Source: Adineta vaga (lineage: Eukaryota; Animalia; Rotifera). From it: a stretch of DNA of 64,000 nt. Location of the stretch: positions 14,322,001 through 14,386,000 of the forward strand of contig CP075496.1 in the NCBI GenBank assembly GCA_021613535.1, in the 5' to 3' direction. The translations under genes were made by a program, and so were the position numbers. The notes below the pieces were generated by a model. That model did not search any database. It saw only the letters and a program-made list of their open reading frames with translations, and was not told the DNA's origin. Shown here piece after piece: positions 1-63,089 of this stretch; position 1 is the stretch's first letter, and each line of letters opens with the position of its first letter.

Positions 1-3000
1 AACGTAAAGGAGAAAAAGTATTGAGTATAATTGGAGATAATGATGAAGCACCAAAAGTAAAACAATCAAAATTAGAAGAAAATACCAATTCAACATCTGA
101 ACAAGATGAAATTCGTTTGAAAAAAGTTTGTTATTGTCTTTTCTAAACAAACATTTCACTCTTTCTTCATAGGAACAAAGTGAATTACTTTGGAAATATA
201 AAGATGCATTAAGAAAAGAAGTACCAAATGATGTTTTAAAAGAATTACTTGAACATAATCAACAAAAAATTGCAACTGGTGAATCTCATGTAAGAAACAT
301 TGCTTATTCTATCTTTCATTTCATTATATTTATATTTCTAGTTAATCGATACTGTTGCTGATTGTATGGCATTCGGTACATTAGAACATTGTCCGGAATG
401 TGGAGGATTTCTTGTATTTGGGTAAATCAGATCATTTTTCTCGAAAAAATATTCATTGTTCTCAATGTGTTATGTTTAGTTACACATGTTATCGTTGTAC
501 AGGTGATGTAACTGAATGGACAAAATGTTCTTATACAACAACAACACCAACACGAAAAGCATTTGATATTCCAAGTGACATTAAAACAGAATATGATGCT
601 TTTAAATCATATAAATATAAAAAACGTGATCGAATCTTGGCGAAAGTCGTGGAAAACCAAGTCACAATCGAAAAAACACCAGAAGTTCCACGAGTTATTA
701 AAGAGTAAAAATTTTTCGATTTTGTTATAGAGTAATTGTTCGTTTCATTTTAGACCAACATATGATTCAAATTTACCATTATCTGGTTATATTGTCGCAT
801 CAGCTGGTCGATTATCAAGTTCAGTTGCAACAATACAAAAGGAAGTTGAACGTTTAGGTGGAACATTTTCATCTAAAATTGATGAAACTGTTGGAATTGT
901 TATTAGTTCACAAGGTATTTCATTTTCTAACAATTTAATCTTTGTTTCATTTTCTGTCTTTGTTCTTTTAGATGAAATTCAAAAGAAGAGTAAAAAACTT
1001 CAAGAAGCTGAATCATTAAATATTCATATTGTATCGGAAGAATTTCTAAAAGAAATTCGAAATGATCGTCCATCAATAATTATGGAAAAATGTAAAATCT
1101 CAACATGGGGAATTTTACCTCATATTCGACAACAAACATCAGCAGATCTGGAAGCAAAAAAGAAATCTGGACGACAAACATTTTCAACAGCATCTGCGAA
1201 ATCTGATGGTAAATTTTTTCGATCATCATCATCGAGATCAATCAATATTTTCCTATTTTCATTTAGCACGATTAAATAAATCAGTACCTGATAAAGTCAA
1301 ATTAAAATTGAAAGATGGAGCTGCAGTTGATCCCGATTCAGGTTTAGAAGATACATGTCATGTTTTAAAAGATACACAAACCAATGGAATCTTTGCTGCT
1401 GTTCTTGGTCTTGTTGATATCACCCGTGGAACAAATTCTTATTATAAATTACAATTATTAGAATCAGATAATGGTCGACAATGGTTTGTCTTTCGAGCAT
1501 GATAAGTTTTATCAATTGATTTCATTCAAAATGTTTTAATTTCTTTTCTTTTTCTACGGGTCGAACAGGTACAATCTATGGTGGAACTAAAGTTGATGAA
1601 TATAGTCGAAAGACAGATGCAATTGATGCATTTCATACGGTCTTTCTTGATAAAACAGGAAATCAATGGACTGAAAGAGACAATTTTCAAAAATTACCAA
1701 ATAAACATTATCCTTTGGAAATCGATTATGGTCAACATGGTGATAATGATCAAATGCAAAAATTACTTGATAGTGCTAATTTAAATATTCAATCAAAATT
1801 ACCTAGTCCTGTTCAAGATCTTGTTAAAATGATTTTTAATGTTGAAACAATGAAACAAGCTTTATTATCATTTGAAATTGATTTAACAAAAATGCCACTC
1901 GGTAAATTATCAAAAAATCAATTAGATAAAGCTTATAAAGTTTTAACTGAATTACAAACATTAATTACAAGTGGTATAACAACATCCAAAACAGCTATTA
2001 TTGATGCAAGCAATCGATTTTATACTTGTAAGTTATTTATTTTATTGAAAGAAATGTAAATGAATATGTTGATTTTTAGTAATTCCACATGATTTTGGTT
2101 TAGCTCGACCTCCTATACTTGATAATGTTGAATTAATTAAAACAAAAACTGAAATGATTGATAATTTATTAGAAATTGAAATAGCTTATTCAATGCTAGA
2201 TGAATCGAATAATGTTGTTGAAAGTAGTGAACATCCAATTGATGTTCATTATAAGAAATTAAAATGTGGTCTTGAACCAGTTGATTATAATTCTGATGAA
2301 TTTAAATTAATTGAAAAATATATGATTAAAACTCATGCGAAAACTCATGATCAATATACATTGAAATTACGAGAATTATTTAAAACAACACGTGATGGAG
2401 AATATGATCGATTTAAAAACTTTCAAACACTTGATAATCATCAATTATTATGGCATGGTTCCCGAACTACAAATTTTGCTGGTATTCTTAGTCAAGGTTT
2501 ACGTATTGCACCACCAGAAGCTCCTGTTGTAAGTCAATTTTTCATCTTTTGATTAATCAATCATGAAATTTGAATTCTTCTAGACTGGTTATATGTTTGG
2601 TAAAGGTGTTTATTTTGCTGATATGGTTTCGAAAAGTGGTAAGTTTCTTTTTTTTTGTCATTTCATTGAATATATATATTCTTTTTCTTAAGCAAATTAT
2701 TGTTTTACAACCAAACAATCACCGGAAGGTTTAATGCTTTTATGTGAAGTTGCACTTGGAAAAATACATGAATGTTATAAAGCAACAAATTTATCTGCAT
2801 CAACATTACCACATGGAACACATTCAACCAAAGGTTGTGGTACAACAATGCCTGATCCAAAAGAACATCATTATACCAATGATGGTGTACTTATTCCAAT
2901 AGGACATGGTGTTCCATCCAATGCTCGACAAACTTCGTTATTATACAATGAATATATTGTTTATAATACAGATCAAGTTAATATGAAATATCTTTTGCGT

Positions 3001-3024
3001 GTGGATTTTCAATACAAATATTAA
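1..3024 (+). CDS. PARP1: Poly(ADP-ribose) polymerase 1, 5'-partial, multi-exon (Zn3/PADR1, BRCT, WGR, regulatory and catalytic domains)
   Basis: Spliced exons give CPECGG...[11 protein letters not shown] (Zn3), a BRCT-like segment, [10 protein letters not shown]...FRAWGRTGT (WGR), [57 protein letters not shown] and LLYNEYIVY (H-Y-E triad). Stop TAA ends at 3024. One intron (1502-1557) is AT-AC. Confidence 0.96.
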
Positions 3025-4667: not shown

Positions 4668-6593
4668 TAGATAACCGTTTACGTTTGTAGGTACAATATT
4701 AATTTCGTGTTCTATTTATTATTACACTTCTCATTTTCACTTTTTTCTAGTCAACAATGAGTAAGTTTTGTTTAAAAAAACATTCAAACTACACAATAGA
4801 CGTCGAATGCAACTGGTCATGTTCTCATTCATTCTTTTTCTTTCTTACGTCCATGAAGATAAAGTCATATGACCTAAAAAAATTCATTAGCCAATTAAGA
4901 CACAATACATAAAACATGTAAAATGAAGCTGCATCAACATAAGTTATTTCCTTTATTATAAGCAGAAATTTGTCCTTCTGTTATGGCTATCGATCCCGTA
5001 AGTTTGTTTTTAGCACTCATTTCAGTGCTTCTCGATTCGTATTAATACGCTCAATCACAACACAAACGAACCATGTGCGAAACAAGACAGTTTGTTCTTA
5101 GTGATTAATGATTAAGCAATGAAAAAATGTGCCATCGATTTTATTTAGATATTAAAATATTGAACGATCTGATGAATAGTAAAGATAATGAATTGAAATG
5201 ATTAGTTCCTATACATTTTTGTTAAATAATGATTAATCAGAGAACACTGTCGTATGTTTGATAGTTTCCGTTAATAGAAAATAGAACTTCTATATAATTA
5301 CTAGAGAATTTTCACCAATGATCTGCATGACCACATGAATGTTTACTTGCCAATGAAATAGTTTTTTTCCATCTAACTATGAAATAACTATTTTCTCGTT
5401 TATTTAGCTCGAACAACTGGTACAGCAAATTTACGAAATCGACACATTCGTAAACAATCTGTTGTTGAAAGCAGCTAATGGTCAAGTTATCACGGTCGCT
5501 GAATTGCAAAGGTTATTAAAAGATGCTGCAGCACGACCATTACTTTATGAAGAAAAGGAACGTATACGACAAGGTATGTCACTGCTGCCGAGCTTTCGAA
5601 AAATTCATTGGAAACATGGTTGAATTTTTAGAGCGTAATCGATTGGGTGCTATCGTCGATCAATAGTTTGATTGTGAACGTTTGGCAGTTGATAAATTTA
5701 TTCATTAGGTTTCTCATTTCTTTGTTCGTTAGTTTTCTTATGTCTTCCTTCAACTATTATTTCATGCTCAACATACTACATATTAAAAAATAAAAGCAAA
5801 AGTTGTCATTTTGGTCTGTAATCAAACAGTGCTTTATCTATGTTTTTTCTTTTGATAAATAAATCACAGTTCTAGTAAAGAAAAACTACTATATACACAA
5901 ATCAATGCGACTACGAAAATTTATTTGAGTTTTTTTCCAAAGAGAATCATTCATACTATTTATGTGTCTATATTCAGAAGTCGATAACTCGTCACAATTG
6001 TGACTTTTTTCATTACTCGATACTCTAGTAGGATCCGTTAATAATCGTTTTTTTCCTATGAATTCTTTGAGAAAGTGTCGAACAGTTCATATGTCTGAGA
6101 AGTCAAACTTTGTTTTGACGGCGATCATGGATAGATGCTAATAAGAACGAGAGATGCCAGTATGTGGGAGACTATTTCAGTTAAACGAATTGAACTATGA
6201 AATTTAGATTCACAGTATATTTATATATATATATGTGATAATGAAGAAGAATTCTGATCTTTTCCTGCATTAATATGCCGTGTCTATCATGATAACTACA
6301 AAAACCATCCATGAATCTATCTGAATATTGGACTTCTTTTTCACGTATAAATAATCCAATTTCTTCTTTTAAATATAGGGTTATTTATGAATTATGAAAA
6401 CCTGTAATTATTTTAATAACTTTAATCATTGAAAAAAGCATGTGAATTAAAAATAAGTTCATACAAGATAACTTGCCTTGTTAAAATACATCCTTCATCC
6501 TTTCGAATCTCGATTGATCTAATGAATGAATCTTTTCTTTTTTACCATTACATTTCATCTAGATTTCAACGGTTGACTTATTTGAATGAATAT

Positions 6594-6960
6594 TACATCA
6601 AAAATCGTTGAAACTGTTGGAGTTGTTATTAGTTCACAAGGTATTTCATATTGTATCAGAAGAATTTCTAAAAGAAATTCGAAATGATCGTCCATCAATT
6701 ATAATGGAAAACTGTAAAATCTCAACATGGGGAATTTTACCTCATATTTGACAACAAACACCTGCTGATCTTCAAGAAAAAAAGAAATCAGAAAGACAAT
6801 CATTTCCAACAGTATCAGCCAATTCTGATAGTAAATTTATCGATTAATCATTGAAATTAATTTCTTTTTTTTTATCTTATCTAAATGATGAAACTAGATT
6901 GTATGTTATTCAAGATTCTTGAAGATGAATTCAATATTTCATTGAGAGAAATTGAATCAT
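6594..6960 (+). pseudogene. Decayed, internally deleted duplicate of PARP1 (BRCT-region exons plus 3' UTR piece)
   Basis: Matches 870-925 and 1023-1215 of PARP1 with a CGA>TGA nonsense change at 6749-6751, then continues into sequence resembling the PARP1 3' flank (3150-3240). Confidence 0.85.
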
Positions 6961-25095: not shown

Positions 25096-25876
25096 TTATG
25101 AAGCCCATTCAGCTAATTCAGCTAATGGATCTTTCTTCGCTTTATTAGCTGAAGGCGCAACCGGTTGGGCATAAGTTCCTGTATGAATAGGTACTTGTGG
25201 TAAATCAATTTGAGCCATTTCTTTTGATAAGGCTTCTTGTTCTAATTGTGCTAATTCATTTTCCAATTCAAATTCATCAATTTCAGCACCAAATCCTAAA
25301 TAAAACAAAGAATCTTTTCATTCCTATTCAAATTTAATTTCAAACAAACCAATTGGACTTGAAATAGCATTTGCAATTTCATTTGACAATTCATGTTGTT
25401 CAGCTAATTCATCCATAATATCTTGAACACTATCAACATCTAATTCTTTATGAACATTTTTCAAAGCACTTGTTGCACTTTTCAATGCATTAAATGCTTG
25501 ACCATTCATTGATGCATTCTAAATAATTAAAATTGTATCATTAAATCTCTTCGAATTCTTTTACTTGTAAAGCTTCACGTTGATATTCAAGTGTTGTTAA
25601 TGTTCCATCGATTTGTTGTAAGGTTTTTTCTAAACGTTTCTTTCTTTTTAATGCATTTAATGCATTACGTTTATTTGTTCGAGCATCACGACGTGCAATT
25701 GCTGTTTCTTCATTAATTTTTGCTTCTAAATGTTCGACTTTTTTGTTTAAAACATCCTCAACATCACGTAACTGTTGAATTGCTTCTTGTGGTGTTTGAG
25801 CTGTTTTAACTTTAGCACCACCTTTTCCAGAACCACCAAATACTCGTGATAAAACACCACCTTTATTTCCACTCAT
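25096..25876 (-). CDS. CHMP4: ESCRT-III subunit CHMP4/SNF7/Vps32, 3 exons
   Basis: TPQEAIQQLRDVEDVLNKK, ALKRKKRLEKTLQQIDGTLTTLEYQREAL, ISSPIGFG, C-terminal LAELAEWAS (ALIX-binding-type helix). Confidence 0.96.
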
Positions 25877-26695
25877 GATCAAGAATATTTTTCGATGAAA
25901 TAAATAACTAAAAATAAAGAGACATGTTTATCAATGATAAGAATATTTATGAAGCTGATTAGAAAAGAATTCTGACGTCGTTCGAGTTCTTTCTATGATG
26001 ACTTATATATCAAGTAAATCATATGAATGACTAAATGAATTATTCGACAAAACAACAATAAACAATCAACTTCATATCGAGAAAAATAATAATATATCGT
26101 CATCAGGAGGATTGCTATGACTAACTAAACGAGATTTTTATTGGGTAAACTAACGTTTTTGAATAGATGTCACTTTAATACATAATAATATTCAGAATAT
26201 ACTCGAATATTATATTTATCATTCAATGACATTTTATTCGTAGATTTCCTTGTATGTTTATCAGATAATATAAATAAAAATATCTTTCTTTCATATACAA
26301 TAATCTGAATCTTATTTAAAATAATTGAACTAAATATTTTATCCTCTTGAAATATCTTTTTCTTTTAAATTACTATGTCTACGATTGAAAAGGGTAATAT
26401 TTCGAACAATGAATTCGATAATGACGACATTCTTGCTAACTTTGATTACTCCAGAAAGCATCTAAAAAGATTAATTTTGGAATTTCCACAACAATATTGT
26501 TCAATATAGAGATAAAATATAATATCTAGTAATGAATAACAACACATAGACAATATATAACATTGAATACGTAGATGAAATGAGAAAAGCAAATAGAAAT
26601 GTTATACAAAAAGAGAAAAAGTTTCACAAACATAAATATGTATCACAAGATCGATCAAATGAAAAAACAAAATCATTTAAAAATCAACTGCAATG

Positions 26696-27332: not shown

Positions 27333-27704
27333 CATCGGTGTGAGGCTAGCACGACGAAACAAAGATTTAGTTAAAACTTTTTTATAAAGTAAGTCCCATC
27401 CATAAAGACGAGTCCATTCGATTCAGAATTTAATCCTGCATCGAATGGTGCTACTCTTATTCACGGGAAAAGCTTTGGAAAAATTTTATGTAGGTTTTTT
27501 TTCTCTTACATAGGAGGAAAATAAAGATGTAGGCAAAACTTTTCCCAAAGCTTGTCCCGTGAATAAAAGTAGCACCATTCGATGCAGAATTAAATTCTGA
27601 GTCGAATGGACTCGTCTTTATGGATGGGACTTACTTTATAAAAAAGTTTTAGCTAAGTCTTTGTTTCGTCGTGCTAGCTCCGTCGTGCTAGCTTCACACC
27701 GATG
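27333..27704. mobile_element. Foldback/MITE with ~155-bp near-perfect inverted arms
   Basis: CATCGGTGTGAGGCTAGCACGACGAAACAAAG...GGAAAAATTTT is mirrored by AAAACTTTTCCC...CTTTGTTTCGTCGTGCTAGC...CACACCGATG around a ~45-bp spacer. Confidence 0.88.
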
Positions 27705-42715: not shown

Positions 42716-44227
42716 TTTTTGTAGTTTGAATTTTCTGAAAATATTTCGAAGAAACTGTAGACCACAAAACTAGGAGAAAAGACCAAATAATGAGAGCAAA
42801 TTTATCGTATAAACGTTGTCGATCTTTTACTGTTCTCTTTTTTTTCCTGTTCTTCGTCCTTGCAATATTTTCGTCTCAGTGAGACGTGATACATCGACAC
42901 TATAACTACCCACACTCGTCTATGTTGCTTGCAAGAATAGAAAAGAAGAAAGAAAGAAAGAACGAGAAAAAAAATGATTATTTTCTTCCATTCTCGATTG
43001 GGAATGTAAAAGCACGTTGGAAAGAATTTTTAGTTTTTAAATAAGAATAACAAAAGAAATTATTCATCAGTTTTCATAAGCAATAAGATTATTAAATATA
43101 CACATCGAACTTTTTCTATCCGACTCGAATTTTAATGTTTCTCTTTTGGGATTTATTTTTTTCTTCAATTTGAGAGAAAAAATAGGGCTGATTTGTTTTT
43201 CTCCTTGTCTGTCATATATTTATTATACGAAGACATTGATTAAATAGACAGATAGCTGACGACTTATGTTCTATTAAGTAGAAATTAACTTCGAAATTAT
43301 ACAGAATTTATCTGAAAATAAACAAAAATCTGTTTTTTTTTGTTTTCTATATAATCATGCTAATCAATTGATCAATTATGAAAACATCTTCGAGCAAAAG
43401 AAATGTCAAGTTAATGAAAACAATCTCAAGGAAATTACCCACATAAACTATCTTTTCTTTTTAATACAATTAGAAGAAGCAATTCTTCCGTTTTATATTT
43501 AATCTTTTATGTTGATTGATAACATTTTGATGGAATTACTTGTTAAAGTATTTGAAATCAAATCTAATCAAAATAGAAACTAGATTGTTATCTTCACTCT
43601 TTGCGTTACAATCAACCTTTGTCATTGTCATTCTAGTTTCAATAATAATTAAAGTGATCGTTTTATCAATGTCGAACGAAATGATTCATTGAAAAATTCA
43701 TATTTTCCCATCCTGTTAGAGAAGGCTATTCTGTACAAATTTTCTATTTTTCTTGGAAACATTTTTTTTTCTCTGAAATGATAGAAGACGTAATAAAAGT
43801 TCTGAAAAGTTTGCGTAAATCTGATCAATCTTTGTCATGTTTAGACTCATAAAAACGATATGATCAACAATGAAAATCACGACCAATGAAATCATCTATT
43901 GAAGTAACATGATTCAAATATTTTAGATATAATAACACATCATATTTTCTCGATGTCATGTCACACTCCTACGTTTGATAAAAGATAAATCAACTAAAAA
44001 AAGAGAAAGAGAGAATAGAGAGAAAAAAACTGATTTTATCAAATATACAACCAGATTTAATGTCATTTCCGTAGATTTTAGTTAAAAGAAAAAGTGAGAA
44101 ATACGATATACTTTTGCAGAAAATTTATAAGAAATCAGATTAGTTTTCAACTAACTAAAGCGTTGAAATACTTAGATTTCACTGAAGAAGGTTTTAAAAA
44201 AGTCTTCTTTTCTCTTTTAAAAAACAA

Positions 44228-44827
44228 ATGGCAACAAGTTTAACATTTAATTCTTATGATAATGATGATCACACACATTTATTAGAAAATTATCGTTATT
44301 TATCTGATCGTCGATGTCTCAAACAACGTTTAAATCATACTCCACTTGCATTACGTCGAAGTTTTTCACTTGAAGATAGTTCAACTGATGTTGATACAAA
44401 ATTGACACAAAAAACAAATGAACAATGTTCAACTAATTTATTACCATCACACAATCCACAACTAAGTTCTTCACTAAATTCACTCTGTCTAAGACTTCGT
44501 CGTTATCAATTATTACCTGAATATGATGAAGATATTGAAAAATCATCCGATGAAAATGATTTCAGTTGGTGGAATACAGCTGCTCATTTAAGAACAATGT
44601 TTGAAAAACTTTTAATGGCACATCAAAGAAGACATTTTTATAATCCTGGTGTGTATGAAAAAGATGAAGATATTCATTTTAAAAATTCAAAAAGACAAGG
44701 ACGTCGTAATGCTGTCTGTGTTGGAGTTGATCGACTGTGTTATAATGATCAACTTGTTTTATTTGCAACTATTGCAAATGAAGTTCAGTTAGAATTTAAT
44801 CTTATGTCTTCGGGATTTAAAATATAA
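44228..44827 (+). CDS. 199-aa protein with a PKI-like PKA pseudosubstrate motif, copy A
   Basis: Intronless ORF kept open in two diverged copies; motif HFKNSKRQGRRNAV. Confidence 0.8.
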   Translation: MATSLTFNSYDNDDHTHLLENYRYLSDRRCLKQRLNHTPLALRRSFSLEDSSTDVDTKLTQKTNEQCSTNLLPSHNPQLSSSLNSLCLRLRRYQLLPEYDEDIEKSSDENDFSWWNTAAHLRTMFEKLLMAHQRRHFYNPGVYEKDEDIHFKNSKRQGRRNAVCVGVDRLCYNDQLVLFATIANEVQLEFNLMSSGFKI

Positions 44828-45197
44828 ATTATGATTATTTCAATGAATTATTTTTATTTTTTTTGAACTTAATTTATTTTCATTTTCATCTTACTTGTCA
44901 TTTTGCTTTATTGCCTTGTTCCTTATTTATCTTTTATTTCGTCGATAAAAAAAATACCAAAGATTAAAACTATATTTATTTTGGTTAAAAGGGAAGTTCA
45001 TACTATTTATATGAATTAAACATATACTTATGATACAAATTAGAAACTATTTCAGAAATAAATTTATTTTCTTATATAATATTATTTATCAATAAAACAA
45101 CATCTGGTTTGTCTTTATTTTCTGAATGTTATTTGTACATGACACTAATAGATTTATATTTAATTCAATAAAGTGTAAGAAGACTATTTTTAGAGAA

Positions 45198-45820: not shown

Positions 45821-47173
45821 ATATTGTTACTGTGTTTTTTTAGATTCTTTATAAAGTTTTATGAAAATGAAAACTAAAAGTAATGAAATTGATTAAAGCT
45901 GTTTATAGCATTCAACAAATAAAAGATATAACAAACTTTTCCAGAATATGTGACAGAAATCTCTTCTATGTCAATATACTTCTGTTCAATTCAATTAACA
46001 AATTAAAGTAGGACTAGCGGGGATACTCGGTGACAATTAACAAATATGTTTACTGAAAGGCTTTGTGTATTGAAAAACTATAAAATATAGAGATAGCAAT
46101 ATGCTTGAAATTTCTCCGTTTGTATTTCTTATATCTCTGTACGAAAAAGAACTACCAGAGGTTATTTCTTCTCCAAAATTTATCAAGTTCGCTACTTCTG
46201 CTGGACTTTATTCTCAACTTCATATTCTAATCATGCACCCTGCTTTCACTCTCACCAGTATCCTCATGCCCAGTACCATCATCAACCACTCTCGATCTGC
46301 TTCCTCTGGACCTAGACAACTATTGTGAAAAGTTTCATGACGCTAGGTATTACACGGACTAAACATATAGTGAACAAACCGACAAACAATCATTCTTCTT
46401 TATATATATATATATATCAGATTATACTCACACCCGTTTTCTTCAGAGAAAATAAAAACACGTGTCTTATTCATGCTCTTTGAATATGATAGAATCTGAA
46501 AAAACAGTCCTTCTGCAATTAAAATAAAAGAGGAGAAATGTGTGATTAAATTAATATGTAGATAACTATATACCTAACATATTTTTCTCTTTATATAATA
46601 GTAATAGGCAACGAAGTACCGTCGTTTGTTTTCGTTTCGTTTCATAAAATTTTACCCCTCTTGTGTATACCAATTAACGACGTGATGTGAAGGCTCTCTT
46701 GCGTGACCGACTTTACATATTTTTCAATGTTATGAAAGAAACCTGTAAATGAATAACTACAGCGTACATCCAATACGCAATAGAAATTCACCTGTTTTTC
46801 GTTTTGTTTTCCTGATCATTCGTTTTTGCCATTATTCATTATTGTCATCGATCAATCTTTGATATCAGCTGCTGGTAAATACGATATATAATAATATTTC
46901 TATAGAATTTCAGTTAGTTCTAGATAACACGAGAATTAATATTAGATAAAAGATAATTAACCATCTTGAGAGTGCAGGTGTAGTTGTAGATGAAAATATA
47001 ATTACTTTCTTATTCAAACTCATACCCTGAAGAGTGTGTATTAATATATAAATTACTCGTTGTTGTTGTTGTCATCACAAAAACTAACTAATATTTTGTT
47101 TCAAAGCACGGATAATCATCAATACAAGAAACAAGTGCTGAATCATACTATTTCTACGTACAATAAACTAGCA

Positions 47174-50100
47174 ATGATCTCGGATAATCATGAAATGATC
47201 AATTATCAACGACTCGTATCGAGCAAAAATGTGCGCGTACAGACCATACTCACAGCAAGTGTGCTCAACGATGAAGCGACGAGTTTTCAGCAACACTTCC
47301 AAAAGAAAAATGTTCGAGTACAAACGGATGTGACTGCAATTACACTAGATGATGAATGGACGAATGGTGTTCGACACATATCGAGAGACAAGGACAATAT
47401 CACCAGTGATACATCACACAAGTCAGATAATCCCAGTTCAAAATCCAATCAAGAAGAAAAGTTTGATAGAACAGAAATATTCATATTAGATGCAAATTCC
47501 AGGAAGGTCAGGAAGAATAACGAATATGATCGACATGAGGTTACTAATACTATGGAAGATGACAGAAATACCTGGAAAAATACTGATGACGTCAGTGGGG
47601 ATACTACTAACATCGGAGATAACAATATAAATGACAAGGAAGATTCAAATAGTACCAGAAAAATGTCTCATCATGCCGTTGAAGAAGAAAACATGACAAA
47701 AACTAATATTAATTACGAAATTCAAGGAGCCATCAGTCCTATTTTAGGATACGCTGATGAGCCTCTTTTATCACTTGTCGATGCATGTGCTCCTCTGGAG
47801 AATCTCCTTTACAACTGTTCATTCTATGTTAAATTATCATTGAGTGAAACACCCAAAGAACCACCCGATCAACTGACAGTTGATGAGAGCGCCGCCATTC
47901 GTCTGTACACCATCGAATGGGACAGACCACATCGAAGTCTTTATTCGATGCTCAATTATCATCTAAAAAATAACGATCGTGGGAAGCTTATGCCCTATTT
48001 AAAATATATCAAATTGCTGTTAACTGCTCTCGTCAAACTACCATGCGTTCCTCCATTGACTGTTTGGCGAGGAGTTACTAAAAATTTGAGTGCAGAATTT
48101 CCGCCGGGTACAAAAGTGACATGGTGGGCATTTTCATCATGTACGACTGAAATGACAGTACTTGAGAACAATATGTATTTGGGCAATGAAGGTGATCGCA
48201 CACTCTTCTCGGTCGAAGTAATGAATGGTCGAACAATTAAAGCTCATTCACATTTCATCACTGAAGATGAAATTCTTCTTTTTTCTGGCACTCATATGAT
48301 TGTCCAATCACAACTTAATCCAGCACCTGAACTTTATATTATTCATTTGAAACAAGTCATACCAGAAGAAATGACATTGGAACCACCTTTCGAAGGTAAA
48401 ATGCATACTTTCAACTATTCATTTAAAATAAAACTAATTTCATATTCAGGTGCTCATATTTATCCAAAAATCAAGTAAGCTTTATTTAGTTTTCGTCCAT
48501 GTATGTTTCTAACAATTTCTTTATCGTTTTTTGAAGACGTCAGTGGTATAGCAGGAAAAGCATCGTTATTCCAATGTGTATTTTCGCGGTTTTGCTTGTT
48601 GTGTCAGCTGTTGTTGGTTGTATTTTCGGATTACAACGTACAAACATCGCGCCAGGTAAATAGATTTTGAGGATGTGTTTTGTGATGAATTATAATCGTG
48701 ACTGCCTATGTCTTTCGACATAATGAACTATTGTATGATCTGCACACTCATAATCGTGTCTTTTCTTTATTGAACACAACTTATATAGAAGTGATCATAC
48801 ATGATAGAAAAAACACACAGAGAGGGCAAGATCAGTGTCCGTTGTGCAGATCGCACATGTGAGGTATAGCTATATGTATTCACTGTTACATGTCTACGTA
48901 GCTGCATTGTTTTATATTCTCACCTATACACAACCATACATTCCTTCCATCCGTCATCGTACAAAATTTGATTGCAGTACCATAAATAACTGTTGTGTGT
49001 GTAATATTGAATCGAAGATATTTACATATTCAGCTGTAACTTAAACTCCTTTATTTCAACGTCAGCCGAGTTCAAGATCATTTTAAAAACATGAGCTACT
49101 TTCGTAAGAGCTAAGACAAACAATTCTAATTTTGAATATTTCTGTTTTAGCATATATGTGTATCGATCCTTATTCAGTATTTTCGAGTGCTGGAGTTGGT
49201 ACTTATCCATTAAATCTATTGGCTCTCAATTATAAGAATAATACAAAATCCAATTTTATAGTGTTAGCTCCGACGGATTCAAAAATTTATGTGCTACTTA
49301 ACCAGCCAAATAAGATCTATTCGGCTGAACTCACATTTGACACCGGCAAGTATCCTTATGGTGTGATTGCAGCTGATTTTAATAAGGATAATTATACAGA
49401 TCTGGCAGTATCCAATGAAGGTGATAATGCGATCAGTGTACTACTTTCCAATGGAGATGGAACTTTTGCGGTTCAAACACTCTACACTGTGGGTAACGGT
49501 GTGGGTGCAGTAATCGCGATCGACGTCAATAACGATAGCGTTCTAGATTTGGTAGTAGCTAACATCGGTGATAGCACTATTAGCATACTGTTTGGTGATC
49601 CAGACGGAGCGTTTGTAGTGCAATATACATACAACGTTGGTAACCATCCACGTTCGCTGATAGCGGGTGATTTCGACAAAAATATGAAGGTAGATATAGC
49701 AGTGGTTAATCAGCAAGACAACACTGTCGGAGTGATGTTTGGTAATGGCGATGGAACCTTTCAAAATCAAACTACATATCAAGTCGGCGAGCATCCAGAT
49801 AATATAATAACGTATGACTTCAATAATGATACGCATCTAGATCTGGCAGTACCTAATGTAAATAGTAATACACTCAGCGTCCTCCTTGGTAATGAAAATG
49901 GTACGTTTCAGAGTCACAAAACGTACAATACTATTGGTGCTCCAAACTCTATAATAGCCCACGATTTCGATAATGATATGAAATTGGATTTGGCAGTGGC
50001 TAATTTAGTAGATGATTACGTTAGTGTACTGCTTGGAAATGGCGATGGAACCTTTCAGGAACAACAGGCGTATCAAGCTGGATCCGGAACAAGTGGTTTA

Positions 50101-51228
50101 GTGTCTGCTGATTTCAATAATGATAACAACGCTGATTTAATAGTGACTAACTATAATGAGCCGACTATCAGTGTACTGTTTGGTAATGGTAACGGTACAT
50201 TTCAGACTCAAATTAAGTATATGGCTGATAACGGACCAAGAGCTGTGATAGCAAACTTTTTTGATAATGATAAACTGTTGGACTTGATAGTAGTCTGCCA
50301 GAAGGTTGACAAGATTAAAATTTTATTAGGTAATGGTGATGGAACTTTTCATGGCAGAATTCCATATGCAACAACTGACAATTCTTCGAACTTCATGGCA
50401 TCCGGGGATTTCAATAATGACACTATTGTGGATGTCGTAGTTACTAACTCTAATAAAATGTTGAGTATAATATTTGGTAACATCGATGAGAGCTTTCAGA
50501 CTCCGATGGACTATGTTGTTGGAATTGACATACAATTTGCAGTACCAGCTGATTTTAACAGTGATACGAAACTCGATTTGGTGTTAATCAGTGAGCCAAA
50601 TAATGTTATTATCGTGTTGCTTGGTGATGGAAAAGGAAGTTTTAATAATCAAAAGACATTCTCGGCTGGAGAATCGCCGATTTGTATAGCATCAAAAGAT
50701 TTCAACAATGATAAAAAACTGGATTTAGTGGTGGCTAATTTCTATGGTAAAAGTGTCAGCGTGTTGTTTGGTAATGGTGATGGAACATTTCAGAATCAAA
50801 CTATGTATAAAACTGGTGCTAATCCAGGATTTGTAGTAGCAGTTGATTTAAATAATGATAATATCATGGACTTAATCGTATCGAATGAAGGTGAAAACAG
50901 CATCGGTATTTTGTTTGGTAATAGTGGTGGAACATTTCAGATAATGGTGAAATATAAAGTTGGTAAACAACCGAATGTCATAGTATCAAATGATTTCAAT
51001 CAAGATAAAAAGACGGATATTGCAGTAATCAATAAGGGTTCTAACAACATCTATATGTTGTTCGGAAATGGAAATGGCGATTTTTCACTCATGAAAACAT
51101 ATGCCACAGGTAGTTCTCCAATCGATATGATAGCTGATGATTTCAACAAAGATGGAAAAATAGATATAACAGTAGCTAACAGTGATTCTGCGGACTTGAC
51201 TATTTATCTAAATGCCTGTCTTTATTGA
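47174..51228 (+). CDS. Receptor-like ADP-ribosyltransferase: R-S-ExE ART domain, TM helix, ~14 FG-GAP/VCBS repeats; exons 47174-48395, 48450-48474, 48537-48655, 49151-51228 (~1147 aa)
   Basis: ART motifs ESAAIRLYT, TVWRGV, WWAFSSCT, TEDEILL; TM IVIPMCIFAVLLVVSAVVGCIFGL; repeats DFNxDxxxDLxV...LLGNGDGTF. The three GT-AG introns join in frame (3444 nt). The true start could lie in an upstream exon. Confidence 0.88.
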
Positions 51229-54200
51229 CGAATAAAATATCAATTTATTATCAATAAATATAAAACTGAATACGAGAGTGTGGGTGGTGTGTGACCAGAA
51301 TACTAATCTTTATTCACAACTTTTCTTTATGAAATCTGCCAAGTCTCAACATAGCGATTGATCTAACCAAAAACAATGATCTTGTCGAACATTTGTAATG
51401 ATACAATTGGTGTGATTGTATCGTACGTTGTGTTGTTCTAACTATTCCACAATAATGGACGAACCGATTCTTCGTTAAAATCAATGGGTATTTCTGTGCG
51501 AAGGAATACCCAATGAAAAATATTGATATTGAGAAGAAAAACTTGTCAAGATTCTTTCAAGTAAATTTATATCAAAAATTTGTGATGAATTTCGATCAGA
51601 ACTGTAATACGATGGTAGATACATATGGCAGGTCAATTATCGGTCAGCAGTTTTAGAGTACTATTTTTGCTGGCTAATGAATACAGATATGGTGCATTAT
51701 ACAATAAAATAATGAAATCTTCCAAGAATATTACACTACCGCTGCCATTAGTCATGTAGTTCTTACTCTGATGTAACATCACGTTTATTCTGTATATTAA
51801 TTGACACAAAAAGATTTGCATTAATCTTAGTTAAAGTTGTATATCAACCTTAGAAATTTGACTCGAACATAGTCGGAGGCAAATTTATTTTTCAGATTTG
51901 GAATTGGAGTTGGGCTGAATGGCAATACAGTAAAACCTTTCATTGTCGACACGTCCGTATATAGTCAACAATTTTGAAAGTCACAACTGTTTATTTTTTC
52001 AGGAAATGAGCCTCTCTATAGTGAATATTTGTATATCATTCTATATGATGAAGATTTTTGAAAAGTCTAGTGATAGCCATGTCCTATAAGTATAGTTGGC
52101 ACCATATTTGAGTAATTCTTGTCTGGATTCGTTTGAGTACTTTTGTTAACACTTTCGATGGTTGTGTTTGATGCAGAATTTGATCCTAATTATTTCAGTA
52201 AGATTTTTCAATCTCTTCTAAAGAAAACAACATTTGCACAGAAAAATCCTGATGAGAGACTATTCTCCCCTAGTTTTCAGTACATACATAGGTATGTATA
52301 TATAATGTTTTGATGATAAAGGTCTACGAGGATTACTCTGTTCCAAAAATCGTTTTACACAGAAAGATAGCCAGTGAAAACTGCATCATTGGGCATATGA
52401 ATAAATAAGATGATATGTTTCGTGGGATTTGAAGTTTTCATTAGATAGAATCATTATATAAAGGCAGACTGCTACCAAAGTTCTGTGCAAAGAGAAGAAC
52501 GATCAAGCGAGACTTTGCAAAGGTGAAGGAAAAAACACGTATTTCTGTTTACGTCTCTATGGCGGAGTGATACAACAATATTAAAAAATATTCCAAACGA
52601 AGTCCACTGTAAAGTCGTTGTCCACACCTCACCCGCTCAAAAATGTCCAGTTTCGACATAAAACGAAGTTTCAAATAGATGCAAAACTGAAAAGCATCAA
52701 TCCAAGAAAAAAGCCATGAGATAGGCTAGTATCAGAAAGAAGCTTCCAAGCGAAACCATATGATGTACATGTATAGGGAGTGGTCAGATAGATTTCTTGA
52801 GGATTAGATGATCTACTTGTTGGTCATTGCTTGATTTATAACTCCATCATATATCAAGACATCGAGCTGAAAATTTTACCGTAACCTCCTCACATCAGCC
52901 ACAGTATATGCTTCGAGTTTCTGTCCATTTGAACATTATGTTAGGATGTTCTATAAGCTTCACAATAGTTAATTACGTATAGGCTTATCCTATATACTGA
53001 TTGTAATCATTCTCGATGAACTGAGATATGTAAGCATTCCTAGGTTACGATAAATATTCAGTGTCGTATGTATATTTCTTTATTTCTCTCCAATTCCTCT
53101 CTCTTGTGTCACTTTAGAACTTATTTTGTATGTGCAATTTTGCAAACACTATATGTCAATTAGTATTTTTCTGCATTTCTTTCAACAATCAATCGTGAAA
53201 ATCGCTCGAATCAATAGTGTGATGGTCTTAAACCATTCACTTTCAAACCAGCATTTTCATAGAACTAATTTTCTCGATTCTTTCATGGAAATAGATTTCA
53301 GGTCTTGTACTAATACCGGTTTCCTGTGTTTATGGTTGCGCCTTTTTTATGATACATCTCAGACGCTGTAGAAAAAACATTCGACGACATTACATTGCCA
53401 TCGAAAAAATTGTGACACACCTTAATGAACGGTCTTGAAATCATGAATAGAGGAAGACAAAGAAGAGTGTCTGCTCAAGTAAATTTACTGTATGTCAATA
53501 AAAGCATTCTTTCAAATTAACACAGCCTTCCATTGACTATAGAACATCCTGTTCGATTACTTCATATGTTCTCGTGAGAGTTGTGTATAATATCGTTAAT
53601 ACAAAAACCAATTTTGTTGAAAGAACCGTCTTCATACGGTTTTGTAGAGAATTATACAGGCTATGTTTTGGAAAAAGAATCAAGCTTATATGTCGAAATT
53701 TGCGATAGATATTTACAAAATACTGAGAGGCTCATTTTACCCGGCGCATCCGTCATCACGAAATTCAAAAAAGCATGAGCTGTAAGTTCCTTCTAGTTTT
53801 AGTAGAAAGCTACACAAAGTTTTAAATTTTGCGTACAACTGAACATTGTCGATCTCAATGGAAAAACATCATTATTACGTTCATTTTCACTTGATTTTCC
53901 TACTTGATGAAATAGTCATTTAAAATAATAAAGAAAACGCAATAACAGTTGTTCAAAACTGAGTAAATTTGATCCGTCTTTGTCATGTCTACACACATAG
54001 TAAAACACATGATCAACTATAAAATCATGTCTAATGAAATCGTCTATTGAAGAAACATGATTCAAATATGTTAGATAAAATAACGCATCATATTTTCTTG
54101 CAGTCATGACAGACTCCTACGTTGAATAATAGAGACAAATCAAATAGAAACAAAAAAGACAGAGACAAAAGAAAAAAACTGATTTTATCAAATATACAAC

Positions 54201-54373
54201 GAGATTTAATGTCATTTCCGTAGATTTAGTTAAGAGAAAAATGAGAGGAGAAGAAGAAGAAGAGGAAAAAGGGAGATAAATAACAAATACTTGAAAAAAT
54301 TAGATTAATCTTGAACTCACTAAAGATTTGACATATTAAATGAAAATCTTTTATCTTTATTTTTAAAAAACAA

Positions 54374-54973
54374 ATGGCAACAAGTTTAACATTTAATTCA
54401 TATGATAATGATGATCATACACATTTATTAGAAAATTATCGTTATTTATCTGATCGTCGATGTCTCAAACAACGTTCAACTCATGCTCCCCTTGCATTAC
54501 GTCGAAGTTTTTCACTTGAAGATAGTTCAACTGATGTTGATACAAAATTGACACAAAAAACAAATGAACAATGTTCAACTAATTTATTACCATCACACAA
54601 TCCACAACTAAGTTCTTCACTAAATTCACTTTGTCTAAAACTTCGTCGTTATCAATTATTGCATGAATGTAATGAAGGTTTTGAAAAAATATGCGATGAG
54701 AATGATTTTGCTTGGTGGAAAACAGTTGCTCATTTAAGAACAATGTTTGAAAAACTTTTAATGGCACATCAAAGAAGACATTTTTATAATCCTGGTGTGT
54801 ATGAAAAAGATGAAGATATTCATTTTAAAAATTCAAAAAGACAAGGACGTCGTAATGCTGTCTGTGTTGGAATTGATCGACTGTGTTATAATGATCAACT
54901 TGTTTTATTTGCAACTATTGCAAATGAAGTTCAGTTAGAATTTAATCTTTTGTCTTCGGGATTTAAAGTGTAA
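54374..54973 (+). CDS. 199-aa protein with a PKI-like PKA pseudosubstrate motif, copy B
   Basis: Same length and largely identical to 44228-44827; upstream region 54010-54235 also matches 43830-44090. Confidence 0.8.
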   Translation: MATSLTFNSYDNDDHTHLLENYRYLSDRRCLKQRSTHAPLALRRSFSLEDSSTDVDTKLTQKTNEQCSTNLLPSHNPQLSSSLNSLCLKLRRYQLLHECNEGFEKICDENDFAWWKTVAHLRTMFEKLLMAHQRRHFYNPGVYEKDEDIHFKNSKRQGRRNAVCVGIDRLCYNDQLVLFATIANEVQLEFNLLSSGFKV

Positions 54974-55559
54974 ATTTAATATTTTAATTAACTACTTTTC
55001 TTTTCATTTCATTTCTGCTGTCATTTTGCTTTATGCTTTGTTTTATTTCGCAAAACAATATAACAACAATCAGTTCGATTTTTATAACAATTTGTTTCTT
55101 TGTCTGTTTATCATATCAATTAAGAAGAAGTTTATTAAAAATCTTTATTCTCGTCTTTTCTTCACAAACTATCATTAATTTCATATCACAATTTCTAAAT
55201 ATAAAAGTAAAAACGTGATATTTAGCTAAGTCAGGATCATGTTTATCATTGAGACTAGATTGATTTTAGAAAAATAACTTTATTTTCTTACGTGATTACG
55301 TTTGTCAATAAATCAACATATGTTATCCTTCACTATATGATTAATATAAGACATGACAAAAAAAACTAATAAATAGCTATTTAACTGAATAAAATATAGA
55401 ATCATGATTATCTTTATAAGTAGCTATAAAATCAAATTTTTGCTTCTATATCTGGAAAGGTTCAATTTTTATTAAAATAAACTTATAAAATGCGCTCGCC
55501 ATATGTCCATCAAATCCATATAGTATTGTCATATAGAGTCAAACCAAACGAATACCTTA

Positions 55560-59803: not shown

Positions 59804-60193
59804 TTATGATACCCATTCAGCTAATTCAGCTGATGGTGCAACTGGTTGTGCATATGTTCGAATTTGAGCAGATACTGTTGGTAAATCAATATGTGCCATT
59901 TCATTTGATAACTCATGTTGTTCAACTTGTTGTAAAGTTTTTTCTAAACGTTTCTTTCGTTTTAATGCATTTAAAGCATTATGTTTATTTGTTCGAGCAT
60001 TACGACGTGCAATTGCTGTTTCTTCATTAATTTTCGCTTCTAAATAATGTTCGACTTTTTTGTTTAAAACATCCTCAGCATCACGTAACTATTGAATTGC
60101 TTCTTGTGGTGTTTGAGCTGTTTTAACTTTAGTGCCACTTTTTCCAGTACCACCAAATATTTTTGATAAAGCACTACCCTTATTTCCACTCAT
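59804..60193 (-). pseudogene. CHMP4 pseudogene copy 1 (internally deleted, frameshifted)
   Basis: MSGNKGSALSKIFGG...TPQEAIQ*LRD; skips from exon 1 into part of exon 2 and then exon 3; ends AELAEWVS*. Confidence 0.9.
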
Positions 60194-60761
60194 GATCAAT
60201 GATATATTTCCTTTTTCTTTTCAAAGGATAAACAAATATCTAAATAAAACTAAAGATAAGAATATTTGTCAAGTCTGCCGTCGTTTTCTTGATTATTTTG
60301 ATATGGGAACAAACAATCAACTTCCTATTGAGAGAAAAAATATTTATATTGTTCAACAGAACGATTTTCGTAATTAAACAATGTTCTTTATTGAATAAAG
60401 GTTATTCTAATACATATATTCCTATAGTTATTAATGTTTTCTGTTTGATCGATGAACATCAACTTGGATCTTATGTAGATACATATGCTTCGCATACAAT
60501 TCCGAGTCTATGGTCTTTTATATTTCAAATTTAATTTAAAAAAAAACATAGGTGTTACTTTTGGATCCATCATGAAGGTAATACTGAAAAACTCTACACC
60601 TGTTGGAAAATTAGATTACGAGATTCAGTAAGTGTTTCACTTAAATCTTTATCGATAAAATTGATCTTTTCATTTTTATAGATTCGACAATGCAGATTCG
60701 ACAAAAAAGCTTTATAATCATATGGCAATGATCAATGAATTTTCACAAGATCCTGGAATTG

Positions 60762-61476: not shown

Positions 61477-61962
61477 TCAAACTTTGGATTTCAATCTGGA
61501 TGATGTGTAAATAAATAAACAATGATATTTCAATAAGTCCTTCGAACTCGATCGAAATATAATCGGATTGTCTTTCCAAAAGTTATCGGGAACACAGAGA
61601 CAGACTGATAGTATAGCATATACGAAAAGCAAAGTGCTAATAATATATTTCCTTGTGTCCTTCATATATTTCATATCTACTTTTAATGAATTAATATTTC
61701 TTTTCACATTAACATTATCGAAAAGGCCTTCCAAATTGCTTGTACGATAAACAAAGGTGTCATTAAGGAAATAGGATATTATACTTTCTCCCAAGGTGAA
61801 AATTCCCTGAAGTCTGTCATTTCTTCCTTCTAAATATTTGACTTTTTTATTTAAAACATCCTGTAACTGTTGAATTGCTTTTCCAGGTGTTTTAGCTTTA
61901 GCATCATCTTTTCCAGAACCACCAAATATACGAAACAAAGCGCTACCTTTATTTCCATTCAT
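61477..61962 (-). pseudogene. CHMP4 5' fragment (copy 2) fused in frame to unrelated sequence, 161-codon chimeric ORF
   Basis: MNGNKGSALFRIFGGSGKDDAKAKTPGKAIQQLQDVLNKKVKYLEG is CHMP4-derived; homology is lost after ~61825 but the frame stays open. Confidence 0.75.
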
Positions 61963-63089
61963 GATCAGTAATAATATTCCGTTTTTTCTCAAAGAAATAA
62001 ATATCTAAGTAAAAGTAACGATGAGAATATTTGTCAAATCTGACGTTATTTTTTGATGATTTTAATATCAGATTAAAACGTAAGAATGACTACATGACTT
62101 ATTCAACAAACAACCAACTTTATATTGAATAGATATTATTTTAATATATAAAATGATATACAGTATATAGTTATTTTTCTTGTGATTCACAAATGAATAT
62201 ATCAACTTCAATGTTTATTAAGTAGGCTCAAAAGTTACACACACGATTCCCGGTACTGGTGTATATTTGTTAATGGTTTTCATATGCGTAGGAAACTTTT
62301 CGACAGAATCGAAATCTTCATATCCATAAAAAAACGAGCAATTCTATATATATTGATTTAAATGAGTAGCTTACTCTACAAGTCTATGGTGAATTATATA
62401 TCAAATTGACTTTTGAAGAAAGAACGATGTTATGTTCGAGGTGTGAATAGAGAAGACGTGAGTGGATTTAGTCAGTTAGAACATAACTCTTTTTCTTTTG
62501 ACTTTCCAATAACTTATATACAATAACAATAACAAAGAGAGAGAAAATTATAACAGATTTCACAATCGTTTAACTATAACAAACGATTTTCGTATATAAA
62601 AGTAGTGGAGACTGAGGAACTAACGAATTAAAAACTCTTTAACAATGAATATAGAAAGAGATATGGACTTTCGTACGACTTCAATACTAAAGTTGAATTC
62701 AATGCAATCACCTCGAATTATCTATTGCCCTTTCTCTTAGTTGAGACTGAAATATAACAGACCATTGTATGCAATCCTCACGGTCGAACAAATGAAAAAC
62801 AAGATTTTATTATTTCTCAACCAACAACGAAAACTTAATTCATTTTTTTCCAAATCTTTTTTCTTGTCCTTCAGAAAGTGAAAATCCTCGCGCCATCATT
62901 AGTTGTAATCAATAGCTTTAGTTTTTTAGGTGGATAATGTCTACTTCGTAAATAAAATATAAATTCTAAAAAATTTATTCTTAATACGCCCTTAATTTTT
63001 CCTTTCTTTAAAAAAAAACTTATTCTTAATAATAATAATAAAAAGAATATCTAATTATGTAGAAAAAAGATGTGAGAAAGTAATATCTT

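Follow-up and report, generated by a model that had tools for sequence, protein, structure and literature searches.

Enzyme-linked single-pass receptors, namely receptor kinases, receptor guanylyl cyclases, IRE1 and TIR-domain receptors, are mostly type I proteins. Among the ADP-ribosyltransferases (ARTs) of the ARTC clade, an ExE motif is the mark of arginine-specific transferases. According to the available part of the source, human ARTCs are anchored by glycosylphosphatidylinositol (GPI) or secreted, with the ART domain luminal or extracellular, and PARP16 is the one cytoplasmic PARP anchored by a transmembrane (TM) helix (PMC10789625). Here we describe a gene of the bdelloid rotifer Adineta vaga in which an ART, one TM helix and an FG-GAP repeat region are joined; it lies at 47174..51228 of a stretch of 64,000 nucleotides (GCA_021613535.1, contig CP075496.1, positions 14,322,001 to 14,386,000; hereafter the window). 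Its product is a member of the ARTC clade, neither an ecto-ART nor a delivered toxin, and most likely works like an enzyme-linked receptor. While the mammalian ARTC enzymes described in that part of the source face outward (PMC10789625), the rotifer family would turn the enzyme inward.

Four exons, separated by three GT-AG introns, join into a single protein of 1147 aa with one stop. The two long frames of the region, 47045-48478 and 49108-51228, match Pfam ART and FG-GAP_3, respectively (E values below). The N-terminal ~180 aa encoded by exon 1 are polar and poorly conserved, and the ART comes next. The features of the gene are as follows.

46806..46874 (start approximate), + strand: probable upstream non-coding exon, inferred from a contig of run X1 and splice signals
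47174..48395, + strand: coding part of exon 1 (aa 1-407), from splice sites and spliced-contig cover
47699..48394, + strand: ARTC-fold ADP-ribosyltransferase with N-terminal helical subdomain, from Pfam ART (E 4.6e-8), model and conservation
48068-48070, + strand: R299 of the VWRG motif
48137-48139, + strand: S322 of the FSSCT motif (S321/S322)
48263-48265, + strand: E364 of the EDE motif
48269-48271, + strand: E366 of the EDE motif
48450..48474, + strand: 25-nt micro-exon (GAHIYPKI linker), equal in length to the gap in the X1 contig and to its counterpart in 15 related loci
48537..48655, + strand: 119-nt exon with a basic WYxRK stretch followed by the only predicted TM helix, which contains S-xxx-G-xxx-G, from splice sites and contigs
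49151..51228, + strand: exon 4, with 14 FG-GAP/VCBS repeats, predicted to form two 7-bladed beta-propellers and bounded by C459 and C1145, from Pfam FG-GAP_3 (E 7e-74) and model
51231..51276, + strand: 3' UTR, the X1 contig ending at 51276 and AATAAA occurring twice, at 51231 and at 51253

The joins themselves are present in public contigs. Record 2 of run X1 matches 47898-48393, 48537-48653 and 49149-49544 with 0 mismatches, and the 27 unplaced letters after the first block equal in length two exon-1 bases plus the 25-nt exon; this is the predicted join of ART, micro-exon, TM exon and propellers. Record 26 of run X6 joins the TM exon to 49149-51218, and in a DNA-type run (X3, record 17) introns 1 and 2 are unspliced and read through. 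The contigs examined came from four of the 24 listed runs. None of the runs is recorded as RNA (X1 is taken as RNA by guess, X6 and X12 are unlabelled), and the evidence for transcription is the spliced joins rather than the run labels. No contig spanning the whole transcript was found in the four runs examined. The sequence-only reading had joined two seemingly separate frames through exons of 25 and 119 nt into about 1147 aa, placing the ART and the FG-GAP part on one transcript, and both claims are borne out by the X1 and X6 contigs. At least 23 coding variants occur among those listed (11 synonymous, 12 not); they may include paralogues and were not used.

The micro-exon is not peculiar to this gene. 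The ART end was located by script in 20 of 23 related metagenome loci, and in 15 of these (about nine distinct genes) a phase-1 intron is followed by a micro-exon of 25 nt; of the other five, two are cut short, one has a longer variant, and two, both in one region (L018), are a copy without the intron. This region holds an intronless 486-aa ART-TM-PAN gene, and also a 1708-aa stop-free frame made up of an ART, a TM segment and about 28 FG-GAP repeats, so the fusion of ART, TM helix and ectodomain does not depend on our choice of splice sites. Absence of introns across the ART-TM-PAN junction suggests intron loss or a retrocopy. The two ART-TM genes of L018 (454-1914 and 5890-11016), with different ectodomains, lie within 11 kb. 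Skipping either small exon alone leads to a stop at aa 467 or 443, and skipping both (144 nt, joining 48395 to 49151) keeps the frame and gives a TM-less form of 1099 aa, the same join as in three Rotaria gene models (P0011, P0014 and P0015).

The structure model of the ART (pLDDT 91) has the split-sheet ARTC fold of the R-S-E clade. In the fold comparison it matched rat ART2.2 with Z 17.9 (rmsd 3.4, 211 aligned) and HopU1 with Z 17.0, the two being tied as best, followed by Tre1 (16.7), XopAI (15.7) and ExoS/T (14.7); all 21 chains at Z >= 8 are ART-fold by their entry titles. The R (VWRG), S (FSSCT) and ExE (EDE) motifs named in the sequence-only reading are indeed present, and their key residues are nearly invariant among 223 homologues: of 221 aligned, 219 keep the R and all keep the S, while the first Glu is found in 215 of 220 and the second in 218 of 219. 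The catalytic triad R-S-ExE is thus intact, and the ExE motif predicts arginine transfer. A phmmer search of the ART against the PDB gave no match, and a profile reached ART2 at E 0.006 only.

The closest named relatives are proteins of Adineta, Rotaria and Didymodactylos, up to 87% identical; one 72% match labelled Sphagnum is probably a rotifer contaminant. At E <= 0.001, 3098 clusters (50% identity) match the ART, and the 10 distant clusters looked up were bdelloid (seven) or unnamed (three). An Atlas search listed rotifer clusters at the top, followed by a single haptophyte cluster (0.94). No prokaryotic (12 candidates) or viral (38 candidates) relative came out of pattern scans, and there was no match in phages; these blanks are weak, because a tblastn search of plasmid records afterwards gave four actinomycete proteins that match 81-92% of the ART at 35-38% identity (lowest E 7e-30), with the triad and the helical subdomain as in the rotifer ART. 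Two of them were scanned, and both contain a uracil-DNA-glycosylase (UDG)-like domain, one also a Macro domain. In our second tree the actinomycete ARTs form a long branch outside the rotifer set, a position that fits an old transfer and names no donor.

As toxin-type, the ART had been described too narrowly: HopU1 is among the top folds, but rat ART2.2 ties with it, and the bacterial sequence relatives are UDG-like fusions. The related claim that the protein was built from bacterial-like modules holds in part, in that the nearest named non-rotifer relatives are the actinomycete ARTs and, for the ectodomain, bacterial VCBS proteins 34-39% identical to it, but no rooted phylogeny shows a donor. 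In the actinomycete fusions of a UDG-like domain to an R-S-ExE ART (L024:3249-5654, L025:2828-4627, L026:2939-4648 and L027; Macro in one), it is possible that the ART is triggered by DNA damage or phage DNA. Two of the actinomycete "plasmid" records measure 5.7 and 11.9 Mb and may be chromosomes.

A single hydrophobic segment (about aa 424-448, Kyte-Doolittle 2.86) follows KIKRQWYSRK, and stands between the enzyme and the outer domain, as in an enzyme-linked receptor. This only hydrophobic segment is internal, with 700 aa beyond it, a layout unlike that of a C-terminal GPI signal or a freely secreted protein. The first 60 residues reach a maximum hydropathy of 0.62 and contain no hydrophobic segment, and none of 44 ART-TM relatives has a hydrophobic N-terminus. 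Record 1 of X1 has 68 letters ahead of 47106 and covers 46829, with a bin depth of 3.44 (expected 3.49), and the inferred upstream exon is flanked by a GT donor after 46874 and an AG acceptor before 47107; because this exon has no ATG and has an in-frame stop, it would add no signal peptide. K/R residues are more numerous before the TM segment than after it in 42 of the 44 relatives (one tie, one reversed). Judging from charge and domain type, we infer a type II topology (N-in) with a cytosolic ART. The absence of a signal peptide, the basic residues ahead of the helix and the type II orientation had all been proposed before, and each has stood up, the last as a supported prediction. N-glycosylation sequons were tried as a further indicator of topology and rejected, since the ectodomain has 10 NxS/T against 10.1 +/- 2.7 after shuffling, and the other side five against 5.1; their number in the ectodomain therefore carries no weight as evidence. 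Of 42 TM helices in the family, 39 contain GxxxG, where 6.9 are expected by shuffle (three rows without the anchor motif were dropped, and kin are not independent).

The ectodomain contains 13 clear repeats and one degenerate FG-GAP repeat with a period of 48-51 aa (about 49), as had been counted from the sequence. The repeats carry the DxNxDxxxD loop of FG-GAP/VCBS proteins and come in a multiple of seven. The model (pLDDT 87, pTM 0.62) has four-strand blades, its fold matches are multi-propeller proteins, and two 7-bladed propellers are predicted from it. In five complete FG-GAP ectodomains (L010 and L012 counted as one, and other gene models examined being mostly partial) we counted about 14, 14, 14, 14 and 28 repeats, and each has C-x-x-P-Y/F at its start and, as its other boundary, a Cys close to the C-terminus; these numbers and the Cys pairs at the ends suggest seven-bladed units and a closing disulphide. 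Among 120 listed FG-GAP homologues, 13 carry an organism name, nine of them bdelloid and four bacterial. Among the sequence relatives, CRTAC1 (E 0.0045) is the one with a solved structure; no solved lectin matched, and the idea that the propellers act as lectins has no support so far.

The family census covers 103 longer homologues. In 44 of them a TM-like segment lies no more than 120 aa downstream of the ART, and 36 continue for at least 80 aa beyond this segment. The outer parts of these 36 are LamG3 (14), FG-GAP (10), PAN (4), peroxidase (2), LCCL (1), NHL (1) or without a Pfam match (4, one of which is a Cys-rich repeat), which makes at least seven ectodomain types among the membrane-bound members. 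An ART tree of 44 rows gathers all 31 TM rows into a single clade of 35 rows (99/94), in which the ectodomains are interleaved, the starred branches forcing at least three changes for FG-GAP and at least two for LamG. A second, quick tree places the TM rows among soluble ARTs (support 86, midpoint root). Paralogues are 62-68% identical in the ART and 35-41% in the ectodomain. Across the family, then, an ART and helix of one kind are combined with varied outer domains, and the receptor-like design suggested by the sequence-only reading is strengthened by this census and tree. The 57 longer, mostly soluble representatives carry LRR (30), NHL (5), AIG1 (2), kinase (2), and Roc, MACPF, TPR and PBZ (one each), or the ART only (10), and these partner domains point to sensing or defence.

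Several relatives deserve separate mention. Three (P0030, P0067 and P0353) have a cytochrome-c-peroxidase-like domain, which follows the TM segment in P0030 and P0067. P0030 has RLGWL at what we take to be the distal-His site of peroxidases and keeps the proximal GAH motif, and its domain may be a non-catalytic heme or peroxide sensor. P0447 is a fusion of 1109 aa (ART, TPR, helical region, kinase, ART), whose helical and kinase part may resemble MLKL. P0430, P0480 and P0452 combine the ART with AIG1/GIMAP GTPases or with a MACPF domain of stonustoxin-like type.

Two copies of the relative P0003 (aa 160-432, ART and TM) were predicted as a dimer with a score of 0.37, the best of three controls scoring 0.00; contact agreement between runs was at least 48% and pLDDT at least 81. 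Among microbial proteins, 21 of 30 solved homodimers but none of 23 monomers attained the mark of 0.32; among eukaryotic ones, 17 of 29 homodimers (7 of 16 from animals) and none of 30 monomers did. The predicted interface lies at about aa 295-298, 325-331, 342-348 and 378-391, and 23 of its 25 residues are identical in the window protein. Conservation of these positions is 0.49 in 41 soluble relatives (average 0.62) and 0.81 in the TM members, where positions matched on soluble-family conservation reach 0.63 +/- 0.04, neighbouring positions and kin not being independent. The model supports binding of ART to ART without showing it.

From these results we consider the protein probably to be a type II enzyme-linked receptor that couples a ligand outside the cell to arginine ADP-ribosylation inside it. 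The outer propellers would bind the ligand, and the chains would then pair or cluster through the GxxxG helix and the conserved face of the ART sheet. A changed ART pairing might switch the enzyme, either by activating it or by freeing it from a resting dimer, two options between which the data do not decide, and a cytosolic target would be ADP-ribosylated on arginine. Most likely, such a receptor would sense microbial or environmental surfaces. For the wider family, it is conceivable, though we rate it somewhat below even, that bdelloids have evolved a new class of "receptor ADP-ribosyltransferases". Its cytosolic ART-TM cassette would have a single origin in a soluble ART, would have been combined by shuffling with seven or more ectodomain types and would signal by ligand-driven dimerisation and arginine ADP-ribosylation, forming the surface arm of ART-based sensing next to an intracellular arm of ART-LRR, ART-NHL and ART-TPR proteins.

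Several observations weigh against the receptor reading. The ectodomain is very short in the gene models of 8 of the 44 ART-TM relatives, and the 35-row clade also includes four TM-less rows (two ART-FG-GAP, two with a C-terminal ART). The topology was derived from hydropathy and charge and not from a dedicated predictor. The dimer score is barely above 0.32 and was obtained on a relative and without an alignment; the calibration is thin, only one of seven eukaryotic dimers without an older solved relative having reached the mark. The confident contacts lie on the ART sheet face and do not include the TM segment, and among the 31 TM members the interface is only slightly better conserved than the rest (0.81 vs 0.73, P 0.08). 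The conserved ART face could bind another protein instead. Finally, in supplement 14 of a study of fungal challenge, as far as its supplements were available (12 of 16 searched), arginine-ART genes are enriched among the down-regulated genes, with 6 and 19 of 431 in A. vaga and 8 of 366 in A. ricciae (FDR 4e-5, 1e-12 and 0.024), the class comprising all ARTC-annotated genes and not the TM clade alone (PMC11258130).

FG-GAP, LamG, PAN and LCCL are also adhesion-type domains, and the protein could be targeted rather than triggered, as a constitutive, membrane-anchored cytosolic ART whose outer domain sorts or tethers it to the membrane, the cuticle or an adhesion site with no signal crossing the membrane. 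Short ectodomains in some members and the lack of any observed regulation agree with this, as does PARP16, a TM-anchored ART with its catalytic side in the cytoplasm in the part of the source available (PMC10789625). We nevertheless think it unlikely, in view of the repeated exchange of ectodomains on a conserved ART-TM cassette, the retained GxxxG and the clade-specific ART surface, which exceed the needs of an anchor. The protein might also be a tripwire or suicide effector, in which binding or proteolytic release leads to NAD depletion or toxic modification and so kills or arrests an infected cell, as TIR-NADase receptors do. Fusion of soluble relatives to LRR, AIG1/GIMAP, MACPF/stonustoxin-like and kinase domains would suit such a role, as would the presence of HopU1, Tre1 and ExoS among the fold neighbours. 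But 215 of 220 homologues retain the first Glu of ExE, which in ARTCs favours arginine transfer over plain hydrolysis; moreover, no cleavage site was identified. The class is very large (the arginine-ART GO term covers 431 A. vaga genes and 366 A. ricciae genes), which would also suit a tripwire, but in the available supplements it is enriched among down-regulated and not up-regulated genes on fungal challenge (PMC11258130). Taken together, we give this explanation little probability.

Two further alternatives concern the product itself. The best fold match, ART2.2, is an ecto-enzyme, and the sequons do not discriminate the two sides, so one might place the ART in the lumen or outside the cell, as in vertebrate ARTCs, with the propellers in the cytosol. 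This reverse topology is very improbable, given that a signal peptide is absent even with the inferred upstream exon, that 42 of 44 relatives have the basic cluster on the side of the ART, that PAN, LCCL and Cys-rich domains and the paired Cys all lie beyond the TM segment, and that soluble relatives have cytosol-type partners (LRR, AIG1, Roc, kinase, PBZ). It is just as hard to believe that the gene mainly yields a soluble ART-propeller protein, through omission of the two small exons, the TM form being minor: the skip keeps the frame, and its join is seen in the three Rotaria gene models, but the X1 and X6 contigs include the TM exon, both small exons are conserved across loci, and gene predictors often miss micro-exons.

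An innate-immune role with induction by pathogens, as first suggested for this gene, has no support so far, and the family-level fungal-challenge data point the other way. In the available part of that study the arginine-ART term is absent from the "up" sheets of supplement 14, and ADP is not mentioned in the main text (PMC11258130). Other family-level data, from the parts of the sources available, show ADP-ribosylation enriched among genes lowered in spaceflight, read there as PARP (PMC12220480), and among genes raised around desiccation (PMC10809525).

The window is AT-rich eukaryotic DNA with neighbouring genes of PARP, GPCR, Snf7, TPP2 and isocitrate-dehydrogenase type. Two 85%-identical copies of a 199-aa gene without a Pfam match (43783-44860 and 53932-55004) flank the ART gene, and GC around it is 0.35-0.38 against about 0.27; the ART gene may have inserted into a tandem duplication or may itself belong to one. 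A PARP gene lies at 731-3021, with a partial second copy at 6593-6861. Three Snf7/CHMP4-like copies are found on mixed strands (25147-25927, 59828-60304 and 61480-62068), and a 335-bp inverted repeat at 27345-27678.

If the receptor reading is correct, ADP-ribosylation by an inward-turned ARTC with exchangeable outer domains joins the few direct receptor outputs, and some of the hundreds of bdelloid arginine-ART genes that lack an assigned role would be explained. The intact gene, whose spliced form is present in public contigs, is of a size suitable for assay, and if regulation is confirmed, the cassette would be usable as a modular ligand-to-ADP-ribose reporter. NCBI gene models with the ART-TM-ectodomain architecture exist under automatic names only. 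Our literature search, which covered mainly freely accessible papers, found no account of such proteins in rotifers. In the available parts of the texts, expansions of FG-GAP, NHL, LRR and TPR, with ART not among them, are described in A. vaga (PMC3846280), and the architecture is not shown in two further papers (PMC3482391; PMC9503650).

Compared with the vertebrate ecto-ARTs (ARTC1-5; rat ART2.2, PDB 1gxy; PF01129), the rotifer protein shares the fold, including the N-terminal helical part, and the R-S-ExE triad, but at 15% identity, and it has no signal peptide, one internal TM segment and a large second domain across the membrane. With the bacterial ExE ARTs HopU1 (3u0j), Tre1 (6drh), XopAI and ExoS/T it has in common the fold, the triad and, as we infer, cytosolic action; identity is 12-20%, and here the gene is an intron-containing animal gene whose product would be anchored in the membrane of its own cell. 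No delivery domain was found by Pfam as a sign of a secretion or delivery module, and the gene has spliceosomal introns and eukaryotic neighbours. The actinomycete (Macro)-UDG-like-ART proteins (e.g., WP_251091506.1 of Streptomyces sp. Caat 7-52) are the nearest named non-rotifer sequences, with the same triad and helical subdomain, but differ in their UDG-like partner (with Macro in one) and are known by automatic annotation only. PARP16, which to our knowledge lacks a large variable ectodomain, also has its ART held by a TM helix with the catalytic side cytoplasmic, as far as the available part of its source tells, but belongs to the ARTD (H-Y-E) branch. Enzyme-linked receptors are the system that the rotifer protein most resembles in design, with a conserved cytosolic output, one TM helix, exchangeable ectodomains, family expansion and likely control by dimerisation; what sets it apart from them is an ARTC as the output and a predicted type II (N-in) orientation.

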